A stretch of 64,000 nucleotides of DNA from Bacteroidales bacterium (GTDB lineage: Bacteria; Bacteroidota; Bacteroidia; Bacteroidales; WCHB1-69). Below, piece by piece: positions 3,321 to 59,297 of the stretch. A program made the position numbers and the translations under genes. Numbering within the stretch: position 1 is the first letter of the stretch; every line of letters begins with the position of its first letter. The stretch lies in assembly GCA_047638115.1 (NCBI GenBank), contig JBLJBB010000107.1, positions 2,808 through 66,807 on the forward strand, in the 5' to 3' direction. A model generated the notes under the pieces. It had not been told where the DNA came from. It saw only the letters and a list, made by a program, of their open reading frames with translations, and searched no databases.

Positions 3321-4637
3321 ATGGCTAAGAAAAATAATACTTTATTAGAAAGTAAACCCAAAATTGTTGTTGGGTTAGACATTGGAACATCGAAAATTGC
3401 TACCATTATTGGATATGAGTCTTCTGAAGGGAAAATTGAAGTGATTGGCTCAGGAAAAGCTGAATCTACAGGAGTACAACATGGTTTAATCTACAATTTA
3501 AATAAAACCATTGAAGGGATCAAACTTTCTGTAAATATCGCATCAACCAGAGCAAATTGCGATGTACTTGATGTATATGTTGGTGTTGCAGGTCGTCATA
3601 TTAATAGCTCAGAGTATCGCCATAGTTTACTACGTAAAAAAGGGAAAGAGGAAGTAATTAGACAAGAAGAGATAGATGCAATGACCAATGAACTGAAAGA
3701 GATTTCTGTAAATATTGGGGAAACAATTATCGCAGTAATACCTCAAAAATTTATGATTGATGGAAACAGAGATCGTGAAATTACAGATCCTGTTGGTGAA
3801 TTAGGAGAAAGAATTGTTGGATTATTTCAACTCATCACCGGAAATGAACAAGAAATTAAGAAAATTGTTCGTTGTGTAGAAGATTCTGAATTAAACCCAA
3901 TCGATATTATTTTAGAACCACTTGCTTCTAGCTTAGTGTGTTTGACTCATGATGAAAAAAAACAAGGTGTTGCTCTCGTAGATATTGGTGGTGGAACCAC
4001 AGATATTGCCATCTACGTTGAAGGAAATCCAGTGTATACTAAAGTTATCCCTTTCGGAGGAAATGTGATCACTAAAGATATCTCAAGCGTTTGTCAAATT
4101 ACGGAAGAACTTGCTGAAAAACTAAAAATTAATCATGGTACTTGCGTAGTTGAAAAATGTAACCAGAATAATTATATTACAATTCCTCAATATCAACAAG
4201 CTAATCCAATACAAATTAGTGAACATTATCTTGCTAAAATTATCTACTCAAGAGTTCAAGCAGATATTTTAGATAATGTCAAAAGAGCCATTGATGAATC
4301 TGGATATTCCAGAAAAATTATGAATATCGTTCTCACGGGAGGAGGTGCAACCTTGAGACATATTAAAGAATTAGCTCAATTTACATTACAAAAACCTACT
4401 CGAATCGGAATCCCTGAAATTGGATTCACGACTCTTCCAGCTGAACTTAGACATCCAATGTATGCTACAGGATTAGGTTTGCTGAAACACGGAATTATGG
4501 AAAAAAATCCAGTAGGTAATAATCAACAAGTGGCAACACCACCATCAGAAGAAGAAAAATCAACTAAAAGTGTTTTTAAACAAGTTAAAAACTATTTCAA
4601 TAACTTACTGAATAATTTTTCAGAAAAAATTGATTAA
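3321..4637 (+). CDS. ftsA: cell division protein FtsA
   Basis: Actin-fold ATPase motifs (VGLDIGTSKI, VDIGGGTTD, LTGGGA). Positioned between ftsQ and ftsZ. Confidence 0.95.
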   Translation: MAKKNNTLLESKPKIVVGLDIGTSKIATIIGYESSEGKIEVIGSGKAESTGVQHGLIYNLNKTIEGIKLSVNIASTRANCDVLDVYVGVAGRHINSSEYRHSLLRKKGKEEVIRQEEIDAMTNELKEISVNIGETIIAVIPQKFMIDGNRDREITDPVGELGERIVGLFQLITGNEQEIKKIVRCVEDSELNPIDIILEPLASSLVCLTHDEKKQGVALVDIGGGTTDIAIYVEGNPVYTKVIPFGGNVITKDISSVCQITEELAEKLKINHGTCVVEKCNQNNYITIPQYQQANPIQISEHYLAKIIYSRVQADILDNVKRAIDESGYSRKIMNIVLTGGGATLRHIKELAQFTLQKPTRIGIPEIGFTTLPAELRHPMYATGLGLLKHGIMEKNPVGNNQQVATPPSEEEKSTKSVFKQVKNYFNNLLNNFSEKID

Positions 4638-9075: not shown

Positions 9076-9280
9076 TTTGGGCATTCCGGCACCACCCACC
9101 CACTATCCCACCCTGCTGCCGTCGGGCTTGTTCCGGGGTTCGCTTCGCTCCCGTGCTTCACTGCACTTCGCTTAATCCAACATCATGATAATATCAAAAT
9201 CATCGCGGCGCTCGTTCCAGTTCGCACCGGCTTCGCCGCCCTCCACATCCCTAATGCGTAAAACCGCAAGCGGTTTTTGG
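9076..9280 (+). repeat. GC-rich interspersed element, family B copy 1 (with 3' hairpin)
   Basis: Starts TTTGGGCATTCCGG and ends CCCTAATGC, followed by hairpin AAAACCGC-AA-GCGGTTTT. Shares GTCGGGCTTGTTCCGGGGTTCGCTTCGCTCCCGT and ACCGGCTTCGCCGCCCTCCACATCCCTAATGC with the copy at 12598. Confidence 0.85.
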
Positions 9281-12597: not shown

Positions 12598-12720
12598 TTT
12601 TGGGCATTCCCCCTCGCTTCGCTCGGGGTCGGGCTTGTTCCGGGGTTCGCTTCGCTCCCGTACTCCATTCCGCTTCGCTCCATTCCGTACCGGCTTCGCC
12701 GCCCTCCACATCCCTAATGC
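12598..12720 (+). repeat. GC-rich interspersed element, family B copy 2 (short form)
   Basis: TTTGGGCATTCC...CCCTAATGC. Shares two long blocks with the copy at 9076. Spurious ORFs 12433..12717, 12523..12711 and 12600..12830 run through it. Confidence 0.85.
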
Positions 12721-12734
12721 AAGTCGGGCTCAGG

Positions 12735-12750
12735 GCAAATGGCAAATGGC
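12735..12750. repeat. short tandem repeat (GCAAATG)x2
   Basis: GCAAATGGCAAATGGC directly after the element. A similar GGCCAATGGCCAAGGG follows the element at 34955. Confidence 0.6.
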
Positions 12751-12794
12751 TAAGGGGTTTCAGTTGTCAGATTTCAGTATTTGTTTTCTTAAAA

Positions 12795-12838
12795 ATTAAC
12801 CACAAAGTGCACAAAGTTTTAATAAAGTAACACAGAGG
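12795..12838 (+). repeat. AACCACAAAG-type repeat module, copy 1
   Basis: ATTAACCACAAAGTGCACAAAGTTTTAATAAAGTAACACAGAGG here versus ATTAACCACAAAGAACACAAAGTTTTAACAAAGTTATACAAAGG at 35096. Confidence 0.8.
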
Positions 12839-12852
12839 AATAGTGAATCGTC

Positions 12853-12931: not shown

Positions 12932-13063
12932 TGCAGAAATAATGAATAATTGAGTAGATAGAACATTTTTTTTCTTATTTTTGTCGCAGAAATAAAATTA
13001 GAACTATAAAAACCTCCCTCAACGCTCCCTCTTTAAACAGAATCAATTGTCAGGAATGAAAAA

Positions 13064-13231
13064 GTATCGATAAGGAATATAAATGTATTATTAAGGATAT
13101 CAGTTGTAACTATAAGGAAACTACATGTACTGAAAAGGAATTACAATGTAAGATAAAGGAATTAAATTACATATATAAGGAATAAAAGTGTACTCAAAAG
13201 GAATTTGATTGTAACTATAAAAATACAGATA
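13064..13231 (+). repeat. array of eight exactly phased 21-bp tandem repeats (consensus GTAnnnAtAAGGAAtnnAnnT)
   Basis: Units start at 13064, 13085, 13106, 13127, 13148, 13169, 13190 and 13211. Seven of eight contain AAGGA at the same offset and seven of eight start with GTA. The last unit abuts the ATG at 13231. Confidence 0.85.
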
Positions 13232-13848
13232 TGGCCACAAAAAGAACGATGAGTGACCTAAAGTTACTCGAAAGATGCAGAATAGAGATAGAAAACCTGC
13301 AGAAACAAACCGATATGGCCGCAACAATGGCCCAATTCGGGTACGATTCTGAAGCAATCCTCGAAGGGAAAGCACTGTTTGATACTGCGCGAGCCGCTTA
13401 TGATCATCATATAAAGTACAAGGATTTACTTAGGGAGAAAGTTTTTCAGTTTAAAGAAATACAGAATCGATTGAAAATGTTATATGGTTTACATCGCAAG
13501 AAGGCGAAGCTGCTATTCCGAAATGACCCGATGGCGCAGACCCAATTGGAACTCACCGGAACAGTACCCCGTAATTTTGTCCCTTGGTTGGAAATGGTTC
13601 GGACATTTTACAAGGTGCTTACTGAAAATCCCGATTTAGCACATCCCTTACTCCGACTAAAGGTAACACCGGACGAGATTCAAGAGGGACACACTCTGAT
13701 AACCAAACTCGAAGAACAACGTTCTGACTACTTTCGGGCAAAAGGGGATTGTCAGCTCTCCACCCTCACCAAAGAAGAAGCTCTTAACTCCTTACACCAT
13801 TGGATCTCCACACTACAAGCTACCGCAAAGATTGCCTTTATGGAATAA
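13231..13848 (+). CDS. hypothetical protein, predicted all-helical, no recognisable motif
   Basis: Clean 205-aa ORF with no signal peptide. Looks GC-richer than the flanks by eye. Followed by a shared terminator module. Confidence 0.55.
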   Translation: MATKRTMSDLKLLERCRIEIENLQKQTDMAATMAQFGYDSEAILEGKALFDTARAAYDHHIKYKDLLREKVFQFKEIQNRLKMLYGLHRKKAKLLFRNDPMAQTQLELTGTVPRNFVPWLEMVRTFYKVLTENPDLAHPLLRLKVTPDEIQEGHTLITKLEEQRSDYFRAKGDCQLSTLTKEEALNSLHHWISTLQATAKIAFME

Positions 13849-17887: not shown

Positions 17888-18061
17888 AAAAAAATGTAAA
17901 CTTTTGTATATCATTTGTATTAATAGAGAGTTTCACCCGTGAACCCAATGTATTACACCCGTATTACAAACGTATTACTCAATTTCAATTTTATCAATCT
18001 CTTTCATTAACCGATCTGTTTCACATAGGGCGATGATGATTTTTTGGTAGTGAACGATGTC
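17888..18061. repeat. 174-bp direct duplication, copy 1 (flanks the IS)
   Basis: Appears identical base-for-base to 19740-19913. Contains a detached copy of the last 29 codons plus the downstream region of the RM gene. Confidence 0.9.
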
Positions 18062-19739
18062 CTGACTTCGACACTGGGACACCCTAAATGGATTTCCAGA
18101 AATTATCATCAAAAAGCATAGCAATTGATTTATGTCTTGCTGTTATTAGCATAGTTTTTGTGAGTGTTGTGTCACTAATTGGTAATTTTACTTTTATAGT
18201 AGTTATTGTTTTAGCAATATTCAATACTTTGTCTACACTTAGTGGTGTATTGTTTGATTTCAACACTCTCTCCAGCTCTTTATATATTTTGTAAGCAACA
18301 AAGCAAATGCAAACATGTGCTTCTATTCTTCGTGGTGTAAAGTGGAACATGGGTCGTATTTCAAGAGTCCCTTTTGTTATTCTGAACGCTTTTTCAACAA
18401 CCCATAAACCATTATATTGTTCATATACATCTTTAGCTGAAAGCAATGTATTCGTAATGTATCCTTTTAACCCATCCCATTTTGCATCTTCATGTATTCT
18501 TTCTTGATTGATTACTACTTTTACATTATCGGATATCTCCAAAAACTTATTGTACCCTCGTTTATTGATGTTCTCTTTCGTAATATTGCCCGTTTTATAT
18601 GCTTTTTGAAGTCGTTTTACACCTTTTTCTCTGTTGTACTTGTCTTTCCTTGCTCTGACAGAAGAATAGCTTACAATTAACCGAGAATCACCTTTTTTAA
18701 GTTCATGAAATTCATTATCATGCTTTGCTAAAGACAAAATATTCCTTTTTACTACTTCTGTCTCATTTTTTATTCTTGCTCCCACAATGTATTTGTATCC
18801 ACCCGATTGCAATAGAGATATATTTGATTTACTCATTAACCCGGAATCAGCAACAACCACAAAATCATCCAAATTAAACCTTTGAACAAAATCTTCAACA
18901 ATAGGAAGCATTGTTCTGCCCTCGTATTGAGAACCATTGAATAACGAGTATGAAAGAGGATAACCATCTCTACTAACCAACAAACCAAGAACAACCTGTG
19001 GTTGACTGTGTTTTCCATCTTTTGAAAACCCATTTTCTCTCAGGTCATCGCTATAATCGGATTCAAAATAGAGCGTAGTCACATCATAAAACATTAAACC
19101 AATTTTACCACCTAAAATCTTACGGGTATGTTCTACACTTATTTGTTGGATCTTTTCTTGTTGTGTGTTATAAAGTTTATCCAAATAACGATAAATCTTA
19201 TACAACTGAACATCTTCATCAAAATATGATTTTAAATAATCCACTGTAGCTGATTTACTCAATGGTTGGCCTAACCGAGCAATCACCAATTGACGTAAAA
19301 TATCATCCTCTATGGCATCAAATCCCGTGATTTTAAACACTTCATCTAAAATTAATTGTGTGCCATTTATAAGCACGTTTTCAATACTAGACAACAAATG
19401 CTCTGTAACTTGTTTCTCTTCCTCTTCTCTTGCTTTTTGTTTAAACATATCTGGAGTCCCACTTTGAACTTCAATCCATTGACGACCCTTTTTAATAAGG
19501 TCATCAACAAAAAGTTCATCTTTACTACTCCCAATAGTATGAACGACCTTATACTTGCCTTTACTTTTATCAATAATTTGAACACTGATAACTCCGCTGG
19601 GATTCTTTTTCTTTCTAATAAACATACCACAAAAATACATAATTTTATGCTGGGACACCCATTTCGGTGTCCCAGAAATTATATGATGTTGTCTATTAAC
19701 CAGTTACAAATTTGTGTTAAAAAAAGTGTCAAAGTCAGG
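18062..19739 (-). mobile_element. IS1634-family (IS4 superfamily) insertion sequence, apparently intact
   Basis: Terminal inverted repeats CCTGACTTCGACAC (left) and GTGTCAAAGTCAGG (right). Single transposase ORF. Flanked by a 174-bp direct repeat. End coordinates are accurate to +/-2 nt. Confidence 0.85.
18084..19625 (-). CDS. IS1634-family DDE transposase (ORF-track start 19658)
   Basis: N-terminus MFIRKKKNPSGVISVQIIDKSKGKYKVV.. is typical of IS1634-group transposases. DDE-type core with VVADSG and a YxxR..E-like block (WVVEKAFRITK). Confidence 0.85.
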   Translation of the reverse strand: MFIRKKKNPSGVISVQIIDKSKGKYKVVHTIGSSKDELFVDDLIKKGRQWIEVQSGTPDMFKQKAREEEEKQVTEHLLSSIENVLINGTQLILDEVFKITGFDAIEDDILRQLVIARLGQPLSKSATVDYLKSYFDEDVQLYKIYRYLDKLYNTQQEKIQQISVEHTRKILGGKIGLMFYDVTTLYFESDYSDDLRENGFSKDGKHSQPQVVLGLLVSRDGYPLSYSLFNGSQYEGRTMLPIVEDFVQRFNLDDFVVVADSGLMSKSNISLLQSGGYKYIVGARIKNETEVVKRNILSLAKHDNEFHELKKGDSRLIVSYSSVRARKDKYNREKGVKRLQKAYKTGNITKENINKRGYNKFLEISDNVKVVINQERIHEDAKWDGLKGYITNTLLSAKDVYEQYNGLWVVEKAFRITKGTLEIRPMFHFTPRRIEAHVCICFVAYKIYKELERVLKSNNTPLSVDKVLNIAKTITTIKVKLPISDTTLTKTMLITARHKSIAMLFDDNFWKSI

Positions 19740-19913
19740 AAAAAAATGTAAACTTTTGTATATCATTTGTATTAATAGAGAGTTTCACCCGTGAACCCAA
19801 TGTATTACACCCGTATTACAAACGTATTACTCAATTTCAATTTTATCAATCTCTTTCATTAACCGATCTGTTTCACATAGGGCGATGATGATTTTTTGGT
19901 AGTGAACGATGTC
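19740..19913. repeat. 174-bp direct duplication, copy 2 (contiguous with the RM gene)
   Basis: Appears identical to 17888-18061. Confidence 0.9.
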
Positions 19914-22900
19914 TTCAAAGTTGAGGGTTCTCCCTTTGCGGTCTTTGAGCCACTTTTGAGCGGGTTGGTAGCCGCCAATATAGAAGTTCCAAGCTACTTC
20001 CGGAACGTGATCAAAATATTGGTTTTCGTTGATGAATACTTTTCCGTTTTCGTATATGGGCTTGATCACTTCATGTGAGCCCTCAATGGGATATTGGATT
20101 TGTGTTTTGTTGAGTATAGGACTATCTAATAAATGGATCTGCCTGATCTCTCTCCCTAATTTTACTAATTTCCAAAATGTTTTTTGATCCTTTGGATAGG
20201 GAACTCTAGGAAAATCAATTTTTAAAAACTCTTTGTGTTTTTCTCGGTAAGTGGGTGAATGTAAAACCGCATAAATGTAATCTAATATACTCAAAGGAGA
20301 AAAGATCCCATCAACCCCTGCAGCTAAATCACAATCGATATTTTCATCTTCTAAAAAAGCATGATTTATCTTTTTTGCTATTAAATCAACTATTCCCAAA
20401 TTTAAATTGGGGACTCTCTCTAAATCCTGATTAATGGTGTTTTGAGCTTTATTTTCGGGGTAAAGATAAAGAGGGAAAGTATAAGTAGTTTCTTTAGTTT
20501 GTAAACTGACCGTACAAACTTCTGATAAATCTTTAGATATAAGTATGTGCTGAAAATCAAATGTGCTTTGTTGTCTACAACATAGTAAAGCGATATTCTC
20601 CTTTAACATATGTTGCATAACTTTTTGGGCTGGACGACTGACAATTTGTGGGTCGTAATAAATGGAACGAATATCAAATGGACGGTAGAGAATATTTTTA
20701 ATAAAGTCTGAATTGTATTTTTTCCCTTTAATTCTTTCTGTAATTTTAAAACTTCCAGAATCAACAACTCGGTACTTATCTATAAATGATTTTGGAATTT
20801 CCCCACCGAGCAAAGTTTTAAATCTATTTTCAATATCTGTTTTCCTTTCACCTATGAATAAAGAATCACGATCAGTTTTTACTCCGTTATTTTTATTAAT
20901 AAATAGTTCATTTAATGAAAACCAACTTTCATATTTTTTGTCACTTAATTGCTTTGGTACAAAAAAGTAATAAGGTTGTTCATAGAGAAGTTTTTTAAAT
21001 CCAATTTTTAGTAAATTATTATCTTTTAGTGTTGAATATTTGAATTCTCGATTACCATATAAGTCAAAATGAAAAACTTGGCCTAATTCATTTTTCTTTT
21101 TCTTATCTGTTTTTACAAAAATGTTTATTGAAACACCCTGTTGAATGTCAAATACATTTTCATCTTTGCCTCCATCTAATGTCGTTTCATTCTTTTTGGC
21201 ACTTCCATGTAAGTCGAGAATATAGATTTTATCAAAGCTTTCCAATAAACTTTTTCGCATTTGACGATGGGTAATTCCGTCAATAAAACTGTTGTTAGAA
21301 ATATACGCTAAAACACCACTTCCATTTTTATCAATAAAGTGTTGGCCATACCGAATGAATTTAATATAATCATCATCAAGATTTATTTTCTTTTCGTTTA
21401 AATTCTTTTTATAATCGATTATTAAATTTTGAATCCACTCACTTTTATTTGTGCTACTTACCGCATAAGGAGGATTTCCTATAATACACATAACAGGGGT
21501 ATCTCGTTTAATATGGTTGGCTTCGTCGGCTTCAGCACTTAACCAGTTGGCAAAAAGCGTGCCAGTGTCTTGGTGGTATTCCTCTAAACTATTGGTGAGA
21601 TAAACTTTAAAACGTTGATTTTTGGTGGCTTTAAATCCTGTTTCTTTTAGTAATAGATCCAATTTTAAATGTGCCATAGCATAACTGGCCATGAGGATCT
21701 CAAATCCATTTAATCGGGGTAGTAAATGGGTTTCTACATAGTTGCTCCAAATCCCTTGTTGTCCTTCAAATTTTTTGTAAATCAATTTGATCACTTCAGC
21801 TAAAAAAGTTCCTGTTCCAGTGGCAGGGTCTAGGATCTGAACCTTATGAACCTCTTGATCCACCATCTTCCCTTGAACATTTACTTTGATTTTCGTTTTG
21901 CTTGTATCTGCTAATCCGTTGGGTAAATCAAACTCTGTTTTTATAATTTCATCTACTGCCCTCGTGATAAAATTAACTACTGGAGCTGGAGTGTACCATA
22001 CCCCTCTCGCTTTTCTTAATTTTGGATCATATTCACTCAAAAAGTCTTCATAAAAATGGATAATAGGATCTTCCATTTTTGAATTCTTTCCATAGTTTTT
22101 TAACATCTCTTCAACGTTGCACGCCAAAAAGATATTGACTAGATCATCTACAATCCATTTAATCCGATCATCAACATCTAAACCCGCAATATACCCAAAC
22201 AGTTTTTTTAAAAACGGGTTTGATTTGGGGATCAGTTCATACGCTTCTTGTCTGTTGAAAGTGGTTAAAGTCGGATCATTGGTTCTTGCTGCAAACATAC
22301 CATAAGCAATCGTTTGCGCATACACATCAGCAAATCCTTTGGACGTGATATCATGGATCAAAATCTGTTTAAAAGCTTTCATTTGATCCTGTAAAGTGCT
22401 GTTTTCACTATTCTCTTCATCAGACAACAACGCTTTTTCAATCACCTCAGAAAGTAAACGCGCTTTCCCTGCCATCATTTGAGCCAATTTTTTTGAACTT
22501 TTGATAGTTTGTCCAATATAGAGGCAAAAATCTTTCATTAAAAATTCAAAACGTTCAAAATTTTCGGGGAATGGTTTGATCCCTTTTTCTGTAACTTCAC
22601 CAATGGTAATTTTCAAAAGGAACTCCCCATCTCTATATATATGAAAGTTCAGATAATCGGTAAAGATCAGATTACTCAAAGAATCCTTATAACGGTCAAA
22701 TTGCTCTTTATTTCCGGTTTTTTTAAGTCCATCAAGATCGGAATCCCCAATATCTTTCGCTTCAATAAAACCTATAGGAATATCTTTTTTAGTAAGGATA
22801 TAATCGGGTGCACCACAACTTTGTCTTTTGGGTTCATTAGTTGCTCTGATACCGGGAACAAGATCCTCAATCAGTTGCTGTAAGTAACCTCTATAGGAAT

Positions 22901-22964
22901 GTTCTGTAGCGTTTCCAAGTTTATAAGTTTTGTTAATATTCTCAATATATTGGGCTGTGGTCAT
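19827..22964 (-). CDS. single-polypeptide restriction-modification enzyme (type IIG/IIL-like: PD-(D/E)xK nuclease + gamma-class N6-adenine methyltransferase + C-terminal specificity region)
   Basis: N-terminal GAPDY...IGFIEAKD (PD..ExK), SAM motif I ILDPATGTGTFL and catalytic motif IV IIGNPPY. The C-terminus (..YIGGYQPAQKWLKDRKGR..) resembles the specificity domain of ISP/IIG enzymes. No helicase domain and no separate M or S gene. Confidence 0.8.
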   Translation of the reverse strand: MTTAQYIENINKTYKLGNATEHSYRGYLQQLIEDLVPGIRATNEPKRQSCGAPDYILTKKDIPIGFIEAKDIGDSDLDGLKKTGNKEQFDRYKDSLSNLIFTDYLNFHIYRDGEFLLKITIGEVTEKGIKPFPENFERFEFLMKDFCLYIGQTIKSSKKLAQMMAGKARLLSEVIEKALLSDEENSENSTLQDQMKAFKQILIHDITSKGFADVYAQTIAYGMFAARTNDPTLTTFNRQEAYELIPKSNPFLKKLFGYIAGLDVDDRIKWIVDDLVNIFLACNVEEMLKNYGKNSKMEDPIIHFYEDFLSEYDPKLRKARGVWYTPAPVVNFITRAVDEIIKTEFDLPNGLADTSKTKIKVNVQGKMVDQEVHKVQILDPATGTGTFLAEVIKLIYKKFEGQQGIWSNYVETHLLPRLNGFEILMASYAMAHLKLDLLLKETGFKATKNQRFKVYLTNSLEEYHQDTGTLFANWLSAEADEANHIKRDTPVMCIIGNPPYAVSSTNKSEWIQNLIIDYKKNLNEKKINLDDDYIKFIRYGQHFIDKNGSGVLAYISNNSFIDGITHRQMRKSLLESFDKIYILDLHGSAKKNETTLDGGKDENVFDIQQGVSINIFVKTDKKKKNELGQVFHFDLYGNREFKYSTLKDNNLLKIGFKKLLYEQPYYFFVPKQLSDKKYESWFSLNELFINKNNGVKTDRDSLFIGERKTDIENRFKTLLGGEIPKSFIDKYRVVDSGSFKITERIKGKKYNSDFIKNILYRPFDIRSIYYDPQIVSRPAQKVMQHMLKENIALLCCRQQSTFDFQHILISKDLSEVCTVSLQTKETTYTFPLYLYPENKAQNTINQDLERVPNLNLGIVDLIAKKINHAFLEDENIDCDLAAGVDGIFSPLSILDYIYAVLHSPTYREKHKEFLKIDFPRVPYPKDQKTFWKLVKLGREIRQIHLLDSPILNKTQIQYPIEGSHEVIKPIYENGKVFINENQYFDHVPEVAWNFYIGGYQPAQKWLKDRKGRTLNFEDIVHYQKIIIALCETDRLMKEIDKIEIE

Positions 22965-23771: not shown

Positions 23772-24468
23772 ATGCAGAAGACGCAGAACATCGAGGGTTT
23801 TGCGTCTTCCGATTTCCTTCCTCCGAACGGCAGGATGAACTCGATGCAAAAGTACATAAATTTTCATATAAAAAATCAAAATTCAAAAAAAAAAATGTAT
23901 TATTAAATCAATTCTATTTATCTGATATTCAATTATTTTTGTTTATTATATTTGACTTTTTAAAATTAAACTATATTATAAACTCAATTATTTTAGAAAC
24001 ATATTCTATATAAATTGCACCAATCAGGGAATACAATATTTATTGCAAAAGGTAAATACAATCGTTTATTATGAATTTTTGAGGTCATAAAATAATTCCG
24101 CTCTTTATACATTTTACAACTTATTTCCACTAGTTTGGTGATAAAAATACAACTTTTTTCCACTTTCTATCTTTTTTATAACATTTAATCCCTTTTTGGT
24201 TATAAAAATTACAGGATTTCTCAATATTCATACATCATTATTCATTACTATTGCAACCTCTTCGAGGTAGTAGATTGTCGTTGTTGTTCATTTTCAGTAG
24301 GTGGTGCTTCGCATACCTCTTTCCGTAGGTAGCTTCGCTTACCTACGGTTACTATACTGGAACCTCTTCGAAGTACTTTGGACTATGGACAACAGACTAC
24401 AGACTTGCAATTCGCTATATATTAACTAATTTGCAAAACTATTCACTCTTCACTATTAACTATTCACT

Positions 24469-24673
24469 CAAAACCGCATGTTTTGCTGCATTAGGGCGGA
24501 GCCGGAAAGCCCGCAAAGCGGAACGGCGATGTGATGCAGGGAGTAAAAGAGCGACCAACGGAAGCTCCTTTTACGACCATGCAGTCACACGGCGGAACGG
24601 TGCGGACTTGCAGGCGGAGACCGACGGTTGTAGAGACGCACGACTGTGCGTCTCTACAACCGGAATGCCCAAA
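24469..24673 (-). repeat. GC-rich interspersed element, family A copy 1
   Basis: Plus-strand reading: hairpin CAAAAC-CGCAT-GTTTTG, then GCATTAGGGC...CCGGAATGCCCAAA. Contains a 16-bp hairpin GGTTGTAGAGACGCAC/GTGCGTCTCTACAACC. Spurious ORF 24431..24715 runs through it. Confidence 0.9.
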
Positions 24674-24731
24674 AGAATGAAAAATAAAAAAGATTTTTAC
24701 ACAATTGTAGTTTAATAGTAAATTATTTTAC

Positions 24732-34748: not shown

Positions 34749-34787
34749 CAAAACATTATTCACTATTCGTTATTCATTATTCACTCA

Positions 34788-34955
34788 TTTTGGGCATTCC
34801 GGCTCGCTGCGCTCGCCGTCGGTCTCCGCTTCCAAGTCCGCGCTCGCCAGCCGTGTGACTGCATGGTCGTAAAAGGAGCTCCCGTTGGTCGCTCTTTTCC
34901 TCCCTGCATCACAACGTCTTTCTCGCTTGCGGGCTTTCCAGCTTCGCCCTAATGC
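34788..34955 (+). repeat. GC-rich interspersed element, family A copy 2
   Basis: TTTGGGCATTCCGG...CCCTAATGC. Collinear with the reverse complement of 24488-24673 and 58978-59160, except that the long hairpin is replaced by 13 nt. Spurious ORF 34785..34967 runs through it. Confidence 0.9.
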
Positions 34956-35012
34956 ACTTGGGCGCAAGGTTAAGGGCCAATGGCCAAGGGCTTTCAGCTG
35001 TCAGTTTTTTTT

Positions 35013-35052
35013 AAGGTTTAAAGGTTTAACGCTTCGCTGTTTAAGGGTTTAA
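35013..35052 (+). repeat. GGTTTAACGCTTCGCTG module, copy 1
   Basis: AAGGTTTAAAGGTTTAACGCTTCGCTGTTTAAGGGTTTAA here versus GGGTTTAAAGGTTTAACGCTTCGCTGATTCAGGGTTAAT at 57538. Confidence 0.8.
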
Positions 35053-35095
35053 TTCAATTGCCTTATACTTTAGTGCAAGGCAATTTTGAGTAAGA

Positions 35096-35139
35096 ATTAA
35101 CCACAAAGAACACAAAGTTTTAACAAAGTTATACAAAGG
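35096..35139 (+). repeat. AACCACAAAG-type repeat module, copy 2
   Basis: See 12795-12838. Confidence 0.8.
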
Positions 35140-35202
35140 AGTTCAGTCTTTATTCACTAATTTATTTGCATGTAAATAAGTTAGTTGCACATTCCCCTCC
35201 AC

Positions 35203-35240
35203 TGGAGGGGTGGCCGCAGGCCAGGGTGGTTTCTTATAAA
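35203..35240 (+). repeat. GC hairpin module CCCCTCC-ACT-GGAGGGG followed by GTGGCCGCAGGCCAGGGTGG
   Basis: 7-bp G/C stem. Only one copy in this window. Confidence 0.5.
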
Positions 35241-35277
35241 AAACGGCAAAGCTCGCAAAGAACTTTGTGATCATTTC

Positions 35278-35345
35278 TTACTAACAAATACCCAAAACTC
35301 TAACCGCAAAGTTCGCAAAGATTTTTCGCAAAGCTTGCAAAGAAC
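35278..35345 (+). repeat. CGCAAAG repeat module, copy 1
   Basis: TAACAAATACCCAAAACTCTAACCGCAAAGTTCGCAAAGATTTTTCGCAAAGCTTGCAAAGAAC, collinear with 57791-57853. Confidence 0.85.
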
Positions 35346-35370
35346 TTTTTTGAAATTTTTCTTAGAAAAG

Positions 35371-35412
35371 ATCACAGTGTTTCACAGTGTTAAAAAGAGT
35401 CTCACAGTGTTT
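35371..35412 (+). repeat. CACAGTG repeat module, copy 1
   Basis: ATCACAGTGTTTCACAGTGTT..CTCACAGTGTT. Related to 57707-57783, which is partly inverted. Confidence 0.75.
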
Positions 35413-35474: not shown

Positions 35475-35509
35475 GGCAAAAGGTAAAAGGCAAAAGGCAA
35501 AAGGCAAAA
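35475..35509. repeat. heptanucleotide tandem repeat (GGYAAAA)x5
   Basis: GGCAAAA GGTAAAA GGCAAAA GGCAAAA GGCAAAA, preceded by ATTAGGGCCAATGG. Confidence 0.85.
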
Positions 35510-57488: not shown

Positions 57489-57500
57489 CAAAAAAAAGAT

Positions 57501-57541
57501 GCAGGGTGCAAGGTGCAAGGTCAAGGATCAGGGTGCAGGGT
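57501..57541. repeat. degenerate heptanucleotide tandem repeat (GCARGGT)n
   Basis: GCAGGGT GCAAGGT GCAAGGT CAAGGAT CAGGGT GCAGGGT. Confidence 0.75.
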
Positions 57542-57575
57542 TTAAAGGTTTAACGCTTCGCTGATTCAGGGTTAA
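57538..57575 (+). repeat. GGTTTAACGCTTCGCTG module, copy 2
   Basis: See 35013-35052. Confidence 0.8.
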
Positions 57576-57706
57576 TCTTCAATTTTTATTTGCTAATATG
57601 CAAATTTAAATATTTAGCCACGAATTCACGAATTAAAAACGAATTAATTTTTCAATTCTAATTTTATTATTCATTATTCACTATTAATTATTCATTCTTC
57701 TGGAGT

Positions 57707-57783
57707 TTCACAGTGTTAATGTGTCCTGTTTTTCAATTTCAAACACTGTGAAACACCTTTTAACCCTGTGGTACACTGTGATC
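57707..57783. repeat. CACAGTG repeat module, copy 2 (contains a 13-bp inverted repeat)
   Basis: GTTTCACAGTGTT...AACACTGTGAAAC plus GTACACTGTGATC. Confidence 0.75.
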
Positions 57784-57790
57784 TTTTCTC

Positions 57791-57853
57791 ATTAACAAAT
57801 TCCTAAAACTCTAACCGCAAAGAGCGCAAAGAACTTTCGCAAAGTTCGCAAAG
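57791..57853 (+). repeat. CGCAAAG repeat module, copy 2
   Basis: ATTAACAAATTCCTAAAACTCTAACCGCAAAGAGCGCAAAGAACTTTCGCAAAGTTCGCAAAGAA. Confidence 0.85.
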
Positions 57854-57903
57854 AAAAATTAACAAAATTCTGATTTAGCCATTATTTTATTTGGATAGTA
57901 GTT

Positions 57904-58533
57904 TTAAAAATTAACACCAACTTTAAAAATTCCTTGTGCTCCATATCCAATCTCCATATTCAAAACCTTTGATTTAGTAAAATTTAATCCAAGGAGGCAT
58001 ATATGTAAGTCTGGGAAAATGTAATTTGTGTGTCCGGTAAATGAAAAACTCTCTCTCTTACCCAATCTATTTGTATAATTTATGCCAATTCCAACTGAAG
58101 AATAAAGTGACAGGTTATCTTTATTAATGTAGGTGAATTTGTTTGAAATGAAAAGTGAGTATACATGAATGTTTGTCCCATACTCAGTTGATAAAAGGTA
58201 TTCAGTTTTTTTTAAAGAATATACACCATTAATACCTAAACTATATTTAGAGCTAAAATTATAATAATAACTAAAATTAAATGAGAATGGGATTGAATAG
58301 GATGTATATTCGGGTTTATTATAAAAACCAAAGAAGTAACCAGAAAAATAAAAAGTTTCATATACTAAATTATATGGATTAAGTGGTATTGGAAATATCC
58401 CCACCGATACATTAAACTCATGTTTTTTAAATGTTGGCTTTGTTGGGGTTTGGTTTTCTTGAGAGAACCCTTCATTGGTGGCAAAAAGTAGCATAACCAT
58501 TGCCATAAATAATTTTATATAATGCTTCTCCAT
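57904..58533 (-). CDS. outer-membrane beta-barrel protein (ORF-track start 58608)
   Basis: Signal peptide after Met26 (MEKHYIKLFMAMVMLLFATNEGFSQ). Alternating Y/F/S strands and C-terminal ..FKVGVNF. Confidence 0.5.
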   Translation of the reverse strand: MEKHYIKLFMAMVMLLFATNEGFSQENQTPTKPTFKKHEFNVSVGIFPIPLNPYNLVYETFYFSGYFFGFYNKPEYTSYSIPFSFNFSYYYNFSSKYSLGINGVYSLKKTEYLLSTEYGTNIHVYSLFISNKFTYINKDNLSLYSSVGIGINYTNRLGKRESFSFTGHTNYIFPDLHICLLGLNFTKSKVLNMEIGYGAQGIFKVGVNF

Positions 58534-58600
58534 AATATTGTGTTTTTGATTACTATTTTCTGTTTGCAAATACTTTGCAATAATACAACAAATAATTTGA

Positions 58601-58640
58601 ATTAGCAAATTAGCAAATTAGCAAATTAGCAAATTAGCAA
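58601..58640. repeat. perfect octanucleotide tandem repeat (ATTAGCAA)x5
   Basis: Five exact units located 68-107 nt upstream of the ATG of the minus-strand beta-barrel gene. Confidence 0.9.
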
Positions 58641-58856
58641 ATGTATAGTATTGTATATCAACAGTATAAAAATTTAGACAGGATGTGATATAATGTGATT
58701 TTGAGCTAATTATTTATCCAATTTTTGGTTTTTAAGCTCAAACTTATGAAAAAAAATAAGTTGTTTTGGAAGGAATATTAACAATTGTTAACAATTAGCA
58801 AAAATTCATTTATTCTATTATCCGAGTGCCCTTAGCCTTTAGCCCTAATGCAAGGA

Positions 58857-58884
58857 GCTGTCAGCTGTCAGCTATCAGCTATCA
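58857..58884. repeat. heptanucleotide tandem repeat (GCTRTCA)x4
   Basis: GCTGTCA GCTGTCA GCTATCA GCTATCA, preceded by an orphan CCCTAATGCAAG element end at 58843. Confidence 0.85.
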
Positions 58885-58958
58885 GTTTTTGTATTTTGTT
58901 GGATTATTGTTGATTGCAAAAAATGGAACGCGGATGACGCAAATTTTCAATAGCAACT

Positions 58959-59160
58959 CAAAACCGAAGGTTTTGTTGCATTAGGGCGAAGCCGAGAAAG
59001 CCCGCAAAGCCAGAAAGTGATGGGATGCAGGGAGTTAAAGAGCGACCGAAGGAAGCTCCTTTAACGACCATGCAGACCACACTTGATGGCTGCGGACTTG
59101 AAGGCGGAGACCGACGGTTGTAGAGACGCAAGCATTGCGTCTACAACCGGAATGCCCAAA
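58959..59160 (-). repeat. GC-rich interspersed element, family A copy 3
   Basis: Hairpin CAAAACC-GAA-GGTTTTG, then GCATTAGGGC...CCGGAATGCCCAAA. Collinear with 24469-24673. Confidence 0.9.
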
Positions 59161-59167
59161 TTAATAA

Positions 59168-59190
59168 GCTAATGTGCTAATGTGCTAATT
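59168..59190. repeat. octanucleotide tandem repeat (GCTAATGT)x2 plus a partial unit
   Basis: GCTAATGT GCTAATGT GCTAATT. Confidence 0.75.
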
Positions 59191-59210
59191 GAATGAATAT
59201 ATTAAAAAAT

Positions 59211-59250
59211 GACTTTAGACTTTAGACCTTTGACTTTAGACCTTAAACCC
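59211..59250. repeat. degenerate tandem repeat (GACTTTA/GACCTTT)
   Basis: GACTTTAGACTTTAGACCTTTGACTTTAGACCTTAAACCC. Confidence 0.7.
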
Positions 59251-59289
59251 AAACGTGTTCCGAACTGCTGTCTGTTTCAAATATTTTCG

Positions 59290-59297
59290 TACTTTTG
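59290..59297 (+). promoter_or_regulatory. -7 box upstream of the nifU-like/ychF genes
   Basis: TACTTTTG 27 nt upstream of the ATG. Confidence 0.45.

Follow-up and report, generated by a model that had tools for sequence, protein, structure and literature searches.

GC-rich structured repeats of a Bacteroidales bacterium: kinship with Flavo-1 and a tentative link to IS1595-type transposons

Flavo-1 is a motif found bioinformatically in 2010, with 239 instances, no gene association and no known function. Nearly all of its members come from Flavobacteria, and the rest from other Bacteroidetes or from Spirochaetes (PMC2864571). A review counts it among the most abundant families of small RNAs (sRNAs), with a function unassigned since 2010 (PMC9029176, PMC2864571). 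It is listed in Rfam as RF01705, with a gathering threshold of 42 bits. Here, we describe five GC-rich intergenic elements—three of one sequence family, ‘family A’, and two ‘B-type’ relatives—in 64 000 nucleotides of DNA from a Bacteroidales bacterium (GCA_047638115.1, contig JBLJBB010000107.1, positions 2808 to 66 807, forward strand). We refer to this whole stretch as ‘the window’. Family A is one subfamily of a large superfamily of 120–215-nt GC-rich intergenic elements that includes Rfam Flavo-1; the feature is real and structured, and belongs to a known, function-less family in a form unseen by the public model. Our tentative preference is to regard it as a transposon-linked, non-autonomous structured repeat.

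Several other kinds of repeat invite comparison. Correia/NEMIS, ERIC, RUP and BOX elements are interspersed, intergenic and stably folded, occur in modular variants, and lie near promoters or gene ends. The elements described here are like them in these respects, but those families are marked by clear terminal inverted repeats and by target duplications (e.g. TA for Correia), and none shares sequence with our element. REP (repetitive extragenic palindromic) sequences, REPINs and their RAYTs, and the PATEs (palindrome-associated transposable elements) of IS200/IS605 insertion sequences (ISs), are also abundant intergenic structured repeats, without duplications and with a strand-specific hairpin logic. 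The Flavo-1-like element is much larger, and forms a three-way junction rather than a single or paired hairpin; it has no conserved GTAG-type head, no fixed target tetranucleotide, and no cognate Y1 gene flanked by the element. Among the features that define PATEs and REP–RAYT systems, the absence of duplications is the only one shared. The IS1595 family (PF12762 / NF033547) normally makes 8-bp target duplications. A 341-aa transposase with an IS1/IS1595 zinc ribbon and an IS1595-type catalytic domain lies between inverted copies of our elements, as described below. The differences from IS1595 are that our elements have no 8-bp duplications, that solo copies appear to lack true terminal inverted repeats, that the ‘arms’ flanking the transposase are structured modules of 165–215 nt, differing in subfamily on the two sides, and that Pfam does not annotate this transposase clade, most of whose members bear the name ‘hypothetical’.

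Fold of the window elements and kinship with Flavo-1

All five window elements share the ends 5'-GCATTAGGG ... CCGAC-hairpin-GGAATGCCCAAA-3'. In the window, GCATTAGGG occurs six times against 0.31 expected, and GGAATGCCCAAA five times against 0.52 expected. On the GCATTAGGG strand the elements fold as a three-way junction comprising P1, a 5-bp helix made from the two element ends; P2, a long irregular arm; and P3, a short hairpin. The initial annotation of this DNA had reported three family-A copies, and reading the sequence confirms all three: the cores extend from 24488 to 24673 (copy 1, + strand, 186 nt), from 58978 to 59160 (copy 2, + strand, 183 nt) and from 34789 to 34955 (copy 3, – strand, 167 nt, with a short P3, CGGCGAGCGCAGCGAGCCG). 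Their three-way alignment has a mean column identity of 80%; the conserved blocks that had been listed are all present in it, with the amendment that GGAAGCTCC becomes GGGAGCTCC in the third copy. The two B-type elements were overlooked at that stage, and were found by a repeat scan and by their terminal words. Both lie on the – strand. One, at 9076–9257, has the termini of family A, a different P2, and a G-rich, quadruplex-like P3 (GGGTGGGATAGTGGGTGGG); the other, at 12599–12720, is a short form of 122 nt, whose P3 (CCCCGAGCGAAGCGAGGGG) has a GCGAAGC mini-hairpin. The extra 19 nt that the initial annotation had included at 24469 and 58959 are an upstream hairpin, CAAAAC-N5-GTTTTG. Rather than being part of the element, this hairpin lies outside the core, as one of several alternative upstream modules: before copy 1 it is a terminator-like CAAAAC-CGCAT-GTTTTG plus CT (24469–24487, + strand), and before copy 2 it occupies 58961–58977. 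At the same fixed upstream position, ~17 of 60 related elements have an AAAACCG..CGGTTTT hairpin. Elsewhere in the window, 35190–35240 (– strand; ccacccctccagtggaggggaatgtgc) resembles a degenerate P3 hairpin and 3' end of the same element family.

Searched against Rfam at gathering thresholds, the window yields two tRNAs only, and no Flavo-1; at E ≤ 10, nothing is found around copy 1 or around the two B-type copies. The connection to Flavo-1 emerges from two other lines of evidence. A scan of one genome per GTDB species with the pattern GCATTAGGG-N135-165-GGAATGCCCAAA found 66 loci, against ~8 expected by chance. Some 60 of the 66, from Bacteroidota plus Leptospira and Spirochaetales, share ...(A/C)CCGAC-[hairpin]-GGAATGCCCAAA, and their interiors are of several types: A, the window family; B and C, in the same genomes; and Bacteroidales, Leptospira and ‘canonical’ types. 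Among 18 such loci from other genomes that were scanned, seven have an RF01705 match at exactly these elements, with scores of 43.7–53.2 bits. The second line is a covariance model, R1, made only from ten published Flavo-1 sequences plus flanks. R1 matches all five window elements at full length (model positions 1–111), in the right orientation and with exact boundaries, at 17.3–27.3 bits. In a search of the whole window, it scores 27.3 bits for the short B-type element (E = 1.4e-4), 21.2 bits for the longer one, and 20.0 bits for copy 3 (E = 0.007, or 7e-3, the highest of the three values); with filters off, copies 1 and 2 score 17.3 bits (match 24488–24676) and 18.6 bits, and background matches reach at most 6 bits. 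These full-length matches argue that family A is, as judged from sequence, a divergent Flavo-1 subfamily missed by Rfam's own model. The initial annotation had recognized no named RNA family here, a view we have to revise: by R1, and by the Rfam matches to elements with the same termini elsewhere, family A belongs to the Flavo-1 (RF01705) superfamily. It had also held that a significant Rfam hit would overturn its proposal; the window has no such hit, and one arises only indirectly, via the same-ended elements of other genomes.

The likeness extends to particulars. The conserved core of Flavo-1, ..UAGGG-A-UN-[GNA]-GC.. / ..GC-[GGA]-N'A-G-CCC-GAC, is found in the window elements, with the variant GGG-C-[GGA]-GCC / GGC-[GGA]-G-A-CC-GAC in family A. 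Family A and Flavo-1 agree in their 5' block (GCRUKAGGGAU-type) and in the base of P2, which has GNA/GGA internal loops; the window elements have the same ...AGCCCGAC 3' block; and GGAAAGCCCGCA is common to family A and the F. johnsoniae members of Flavo-1. Both are found in the same taxa (Flavobacteriia, other Bacteroidota and Spirochaetes), neither has a gene association, and published Flavo-1 members, too, carry P1, P3 and a CCCA tail in their flanks. Family A differs in that a single C–G pair replaces UU/AA, GACCGAC takes the place of GCCCGAC, and the P2 arm is both different and longer. A further difference lies in the Rfam model itself, which omits the 3' strand of P1 and P3; the three-way junction is therefore absent from the published description. 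The Flavo-1 family is much broader than its Rfam model, with at least three further sequence subfamilies and up to five copies per 64 kb, and the actual structure of its members is a closed three-way junction in which the ends pair. To our knowledge this extension, and the IS1595-clade link described below, are new. Literature searches with the element's sequence strings, and on Flavobacterium repeats and IS1595 MITEs (miniature inverted-repeat transposable elements), returned nothing relevant. Copy 1 has no blastn match among PLSDB plasmids or INPHARED phages, and the termini pattern has none in IMG/VR viral contigs.

The consensus anatomy of the superfamily is 5'-GCRTK-A-GGG ... (A/C)CCGAC-[hairpin]-G-MAYGC-CCA-3'. 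In copy 1, the 5' strand of P1, GCATT (24488–24492, + strand), pairs with AATGC at 24664–24668. P2 (24495–24622, + strand; RNAalifold) has the internal loops CGGAG/CGGAGA and a conserved apical module, AGAGCGACC..GGAAGCTC; and P3, the variable hairpin CGG-TTGTAGAGACGCAC..GTGCGTCTCTACAA-CCG (24625–24662, + strand), comes directly before the 3' strand of P1. The purine-rich internal loops of P2 are conserved in the superfamily, and its distal part is replaceable; so is P3, which is exchanged between subfamilies and between strains. Both of the compensatory changes first claimed for family A are in the sequence, namely GTAAAAGAGC/GCTCCTTTTAC versus GTTAAAGAGC/GCTCCTTTAAC, and GCAC..GTGC versus GCAA..TTGC, and co-variation of the helices becomes strong in an alignment of 24 copies of types A and C taken from five genomes, the window's and four others. 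Standard pairs occupy 92.2% of cells, against 78.0% in shuffles, and none of 500 shuffles reaches the observed values. Both sides have changed in 26 of the 54 pairs of P1, P2 and P3 (25 of 42 in P2), the covariation score is 0.33 against 0.11 in shuffles, and controls with slid partners are 31–42% paired. P1 is invariant in this alignment, the copies having been pattern-selected on their termini. Outside the pattern-selected set it co-varies: three loci (L008, L054 and L164) have GCGTT...AACGC, and the ten published Flavo-1 members, taken with their flanks, have GCGUG/CACGC (six), GCGUU/AACGC (one), GCAUU/AAUGC (one) or a mismatch (one). Most published members have CCCA after P1 (2010 supplement, with flanks), and in eight of the ten CCA follows P1 immediately. 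Since the folding z-scores against shuffles are nearly equal on the two strands (–6.9 on +, –6.8 on –), folding energy alone does not choose between them. The excess of G–U over A–C (36 cells versus nine on the GCATTAGGG strand) places the fold on that strand, although the G–U count is somewhat inflated by the RNA energy rules that were used to predict structure there.

Transposon ends and repeat islands

Extra copies of the elements, found by nhmmer on chromosome OW818690.1 and in other metagenome-assembled genomes, occur as inverted pairs whose 5' ends face each other. Such a pair brackets the 341-aa open reading frame (ORF) in L019 and L024; L045 has a degraded copy of this ORF, and L025 its C-terminal part. 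The ORF matches the NCBIfam IS1595 transposase (E = 1e-15 and 3e-13) without reaching the curated cut-off, and its match to the IS1/IS1595 zinc domain exceeds that domain's cut-off. Some 50 clusters of close protein relatives lack an annotation or are called ‘hypothetical’, and PF12762 appears in more distant ones. Copies of types A, B and C all abut the tips of the transposase cassette, always with the 5' end toward the IS and GGAATGCCC outermost. The elements form outer arms on the cassette in L019, L024, L045, L084, L085 and L086, and stand on one side of it in L025, L082, L087, L089, L090, L144 and L170–174. In L024, the right arm is A-type, with 82% identity to the copies of the window. 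The right arm of the transposon is placed in sense orientation within the 3' untranslated region of the transposase mRNA. L019 and L045, two loci of one chromosome, have one composite in common: C arm, IS, 11 nt, C' arm.

Metagenomes were also scanned by transposase alone, for relatives at least 55% identical. At these transposase-selected loci, an element with the orientation described above is present at 11 of ~15 assessable IS ends; one of these 11 is a 24-nt mini form, GCATTAGGGAGAAGCCGGAATGCC. A transposase clade 46–48% identical, found in samples that also hold the window's species, is followed downstream by a hairpin and a B-type element at each of two loci. IS1595 relatives at 28–35% identity have no such elements, and so the element–IS link is confined to one clade. 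The inverted repeats of the IS end ...GCTCCGTCGGG-(T)AATGA-CCCC, and the IS tip ...CCGTCGGG-TAATGA-CCCC bears a resemblance, suggestive only, to the 3' end of the element, ...CCGACGG[P3]CCGG-AATG-CCC. The IS tips start GGGG..., as they do in the IS1016 group.

Members of the family behave as strain-variable repeats, and are physically tied to an unannotated clade of IS1595-type transposons. According to the reading that we tentatively prefer, the element would be a selfish DNA module belonging with this so-far unannotated clade of IS1595-family (DDE) ISs. Copies cap IS tips and are carried with the ISs to new loci; far more numerous are solo copies, which sit in strain-variable ‘repeat islands’ with arrays of 7–8-nt units, and might be moved by the IS1595-like transposase or by another enzyme acting in trans. 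The single-stranded fold, as DNA or as read-through RNA, would serve to juxtapose and mark the ends, rather than to make a free regulatory sRNA. If this is true, hundreds of Bacteroidota ‘sRNA’ annotations would have to be re-read as transposon-derived repeats, and the elements would explain assembly breaks and promoter-proximal strain variation. The 341-aa transposase and the defined ends provide concrete, testable candidates for an old orphan motif.

Strain variation at the copy-2 locus was followed in other samples, through contigs whose YchF or NifU is 100% identical. In the window, this locus is a 1.75-kb repeat island (57540–59290) with copy 2, several 7–8-nt arrays and a 234-aa ORF; some contigs have 134 nt instead, and others a B-type element, or an element with a different P3. 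The ORF (57904–58608, – strand) has no Pfam match, and is missing in strains with the 134-nt intergenic region. The site upstream of nifU is empty in L067, L068, L075 and L076, and is filled differently in the window, L072, L074, L164 and L169. In L074 (~2530–2590, upstream of nifU) two inverted 3' ends form a perfect palindrome, TTTGGGCATTCCGG-hairpin-CCGGAATGCCCAAA, as if from strand switching at P3. At the copy-1 locus, other strains retain only the 3' 75 nt of the element, beside a different gene set. Contig searches with the methyltransferase and with the TonB receptor, using either start codon, found none. Contigs with GAPDH break before reaching the island, and some assembled contigs stop inside element copies.

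Tandem arrays with units of 7–8 nt surround the GC-rich elements of the window, at 12734–12750, 24438–24468, 34754–34783, 34972–35029, 35475–35509, 57496–57541, 57666–57700, 58600–58642, 58828–58885 and 59168–59245. The second of these, a heptamer array on the + strand (ACTATTC, 4.4 units; TRF), adjoins the copy-1 element. The array types GTGAATA, GGACAAC, GCTAATGT, GAGTTAA and GGTTTTAG recur beside element 3' ends in other genomes, and their copy number varies by strain (e.g. two versus six units of GCAGGGT).

A number of observations weigh against a transposon-linked origin. The window encodes no transposase of the 341-aa IS1595 type; some IS ends have no arms (L083, L087 upstream and L088); and the cassette has inverted repeats of its own, of ~50 bp. 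Target-site duplications are missing: among 66–67 elements, no more than three of 67 match at any fixed offset, and when a variable 3' tail is allowed for, no duplication of 9 nt or longer is found within 260 nt downstream. The ends of solo elements share only GCATT/AATGC (5 bp; 7 of 9 positions with neighbours), and seem not to form proper terminal inverted repeats. ISs with transposases of only 58% identity have arms that are ~92% identical, and so the arms may be independent insertions at IS tips, or may have been homogenized. The difference between empty and filled nifU sites spans the whole island, with no clean gain or loss of a single element. At non-orthologous loci of different species, sub-subfamilies are interleaved and reach 96% identity, which suggests selection at the level of sequence. 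Two species of Hyunsoonleella retain the element at an orthologous locus (L008/L054) while the tip of P2 has diverged. Finally, the strand-specific G–U bias and the conservation of the core across phyla both fit an RNA.

Gene context and rival explanations

All five window elements lie 64–166 nt upstream of a gene in the same orientation, and a 94-aa ORF spans copy 1, which might suggest a cis-regulatory leader (a riboswitch or attenuator) or a small protein-coding gene. Orientation and gene content effectively refute both. The downstream genes are functionally unrelated (ORF6N, TonB receptor, NifU/YchF, MurG and a methyltransferase), the next gene downstream shares the strand of the element in 27 of 52 cases and lies on the other strand in 25, and direct reading places a Bacteroidetes –7 box (TAnnTTTG) between every window element and the start codon. 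Low-copy genomes have no conserved neighbour gene. The riboswitch or leader explanation is accordingly rejected, given the unrelated genes and the lack of orientation bias, and so is the coding one, given that the ORF has no Pfam or other family match and that its frame breaks between copies. The initial annotation had argued for a non-coding structured element rather than a peptide, noting indels that are not multiples of three; the alignment has these indels, and we agree with its conclusion. The 3' end of the element is no more than 40 nt from the stop codon of the opposite-strand gene in 13 of 25 cases, and is so placed in the sense arrangement in two of 22. In Hyunsoonleella (L008), a head-to-head pair of canonical Flavo-1 elements (1847–2007, – strand; 3364–3485, + strand) surrounds a gene for a heavy-metal-associated membrane protein, and no transposase is present there.

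The initial annotation had left the choice between a structured RNA and MITE- or PATE-like DNA, and it is between these that the evidence still sits, although the features of IS200/IS605 PATEs are mostly lacking. The most serious rival, if on balance unlikely, is that the element is a true non-coding structured RNA, as Rfam classifies Flavo-1 (‘Gene; sRNA’), with a functional three-way junction processed from read-through transcripts; adjacency to ISs and the multi-copy state would then be secondary. One possibility within this explanation is a tRNA-like substrate of RNase P, with a pyrimidine at –1, G at +1, and CCA after P1. Many of the structural data are what such an RNA would predict: co-variation with asymmetric, conserved, purine-rich internal loops, G–U pairs in excess of A–C, co-variation at two positions of P1 in the published members, the CCA that follows P1 in most of these, and C or T at position –1 in nearly all copies. 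The core is kept from Flavobacteriia to Leptospira, the orthologous Hyunsoonleella copies persist despite divergence of the P2 tip, and a long-read study of Leptospira lists Flavo-1 among unannotated transcripts (bioRxiv 10.1101/2023.03.29.534852). What speaks against an RNA gene is its surroundings. No conserved promoter lies upstream of the elements, the flanks of which are not conserved, and they have no orientation bias with respect to genes. In the F. psychrophilum transcriptome, Flavo-1 matches occur in either orientation, sense or antisense, relative to transcribed regions, and transcription is lacking for many of them (PMC9723704). Near-identical strains have lost or rearranged copies, as many as five occur in 64 kb, and part of the G–U excess reflects the energy rules used.

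The strand-specific fold would fit two further explanations. The elements could be single-strand-DNA elements of the HUH type (IS200/IS605 PATEs or REP/RAYT-like), moved in trans by a Y1 transposase and inserting without duplication beside hairpins or runs of pyrimidines, among them the ...CCCC tips of IS1595-like elements. We think this improbable, yet it accounts for several details: the absence of target-site duplications, a 3' hairpin in a subterminal position ~10 nt before the end, the GNA triloops and GCGAAGC mini-hairpins that characterize stable hairpins of DNA, a 5' flank that is either a hairpin plus TTTTC or CCCC, arms that are younger than the ISs they cap, and a Y1_Tnp gene in a related strain (L077). 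If the arms are independent insertions at IS tips, then a single-strand mechanism of this kind would be favoured. On the other hand, P2 and P3 are unlike each other, whereas the ends of IS200/IS605 elements carry similar hairpins; the target has no fixed tetranucleotide, only a pyrimidine at –1; the repeats on either side of the Y1_Tnp of L077, which is the only Y1 transposase seen, belong to a different REP family; and the 14 copies on the complete chromosome OW818690.1 have no replication-strand pattern. An RNA-mediated, SINE-like (short interspersed element) retro-element, for which the 7–8-nt arrays at the 3' end would be slippage tails of a reverse transcriptase, is highly improbable. It would explain the precise 5' end, the strand-specific fold, and the tandem-repeat ‘tails’ of variable length and recurring types after the 3' end, but target-site duplications are absent even when a variable tail is allowed, no reverse transcriptase is seen in any context, and arrays also occur upstream of, and apart from, the elements.

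Beyond the preferred reading of a transposon-linked repeat, we would mention a more speculative extension of it, which we regard as a long shot: rather than a free sRNA, the Flavo-1 superfamily might be a structured nucleic-acid component of a transposition system, at the ends of a clade of IS1595-type DDE transposons, its fold, as RNA or single-stranded DNA, being read by the machinery, analogous in spirit to the bridge RNA of IS110 or the omega RNA of IS605. This would account both for the lack of duplications on insertion and for the exchangeable segments of P2 and P3.

Other repeats in the window

The window contains repeats of several other kinds. At 24230–24380, and at 1–1000 of L077, are REP-like hairpins with GCGAAGC loops (ggtagcttcgcttacctacgg, tgcaacctcttcgaggta). 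In L077, from a related strain, the same repeats lie on both sides of the 149-aa Y1_Tnp (IS200/RAYT-like) gene, and together they look like a separate REP/RAYT system. A perfect direct repeat of 174 nt (17888–18061 and 19740–19913) surrounds the gene for a 524-aa DDE_Tnp_1 transposase (ORF 18084–19658, – strand), which adjoins a Type ISP restriction–modification gene (19827–22964). A 21-nt unit (AGGAATATAAATGTATCGATA) is repeated ~7 times at 13052–13204, upstream of ORF 13231–13848, and looks like an iteron or binding-site array. Between the islands, 35091–35412, 57741–57855 and 12790–12839 share intergenic modules of short words (CACAAAG, GCAAAG and CACTGTG) in direct and inverted orientation.

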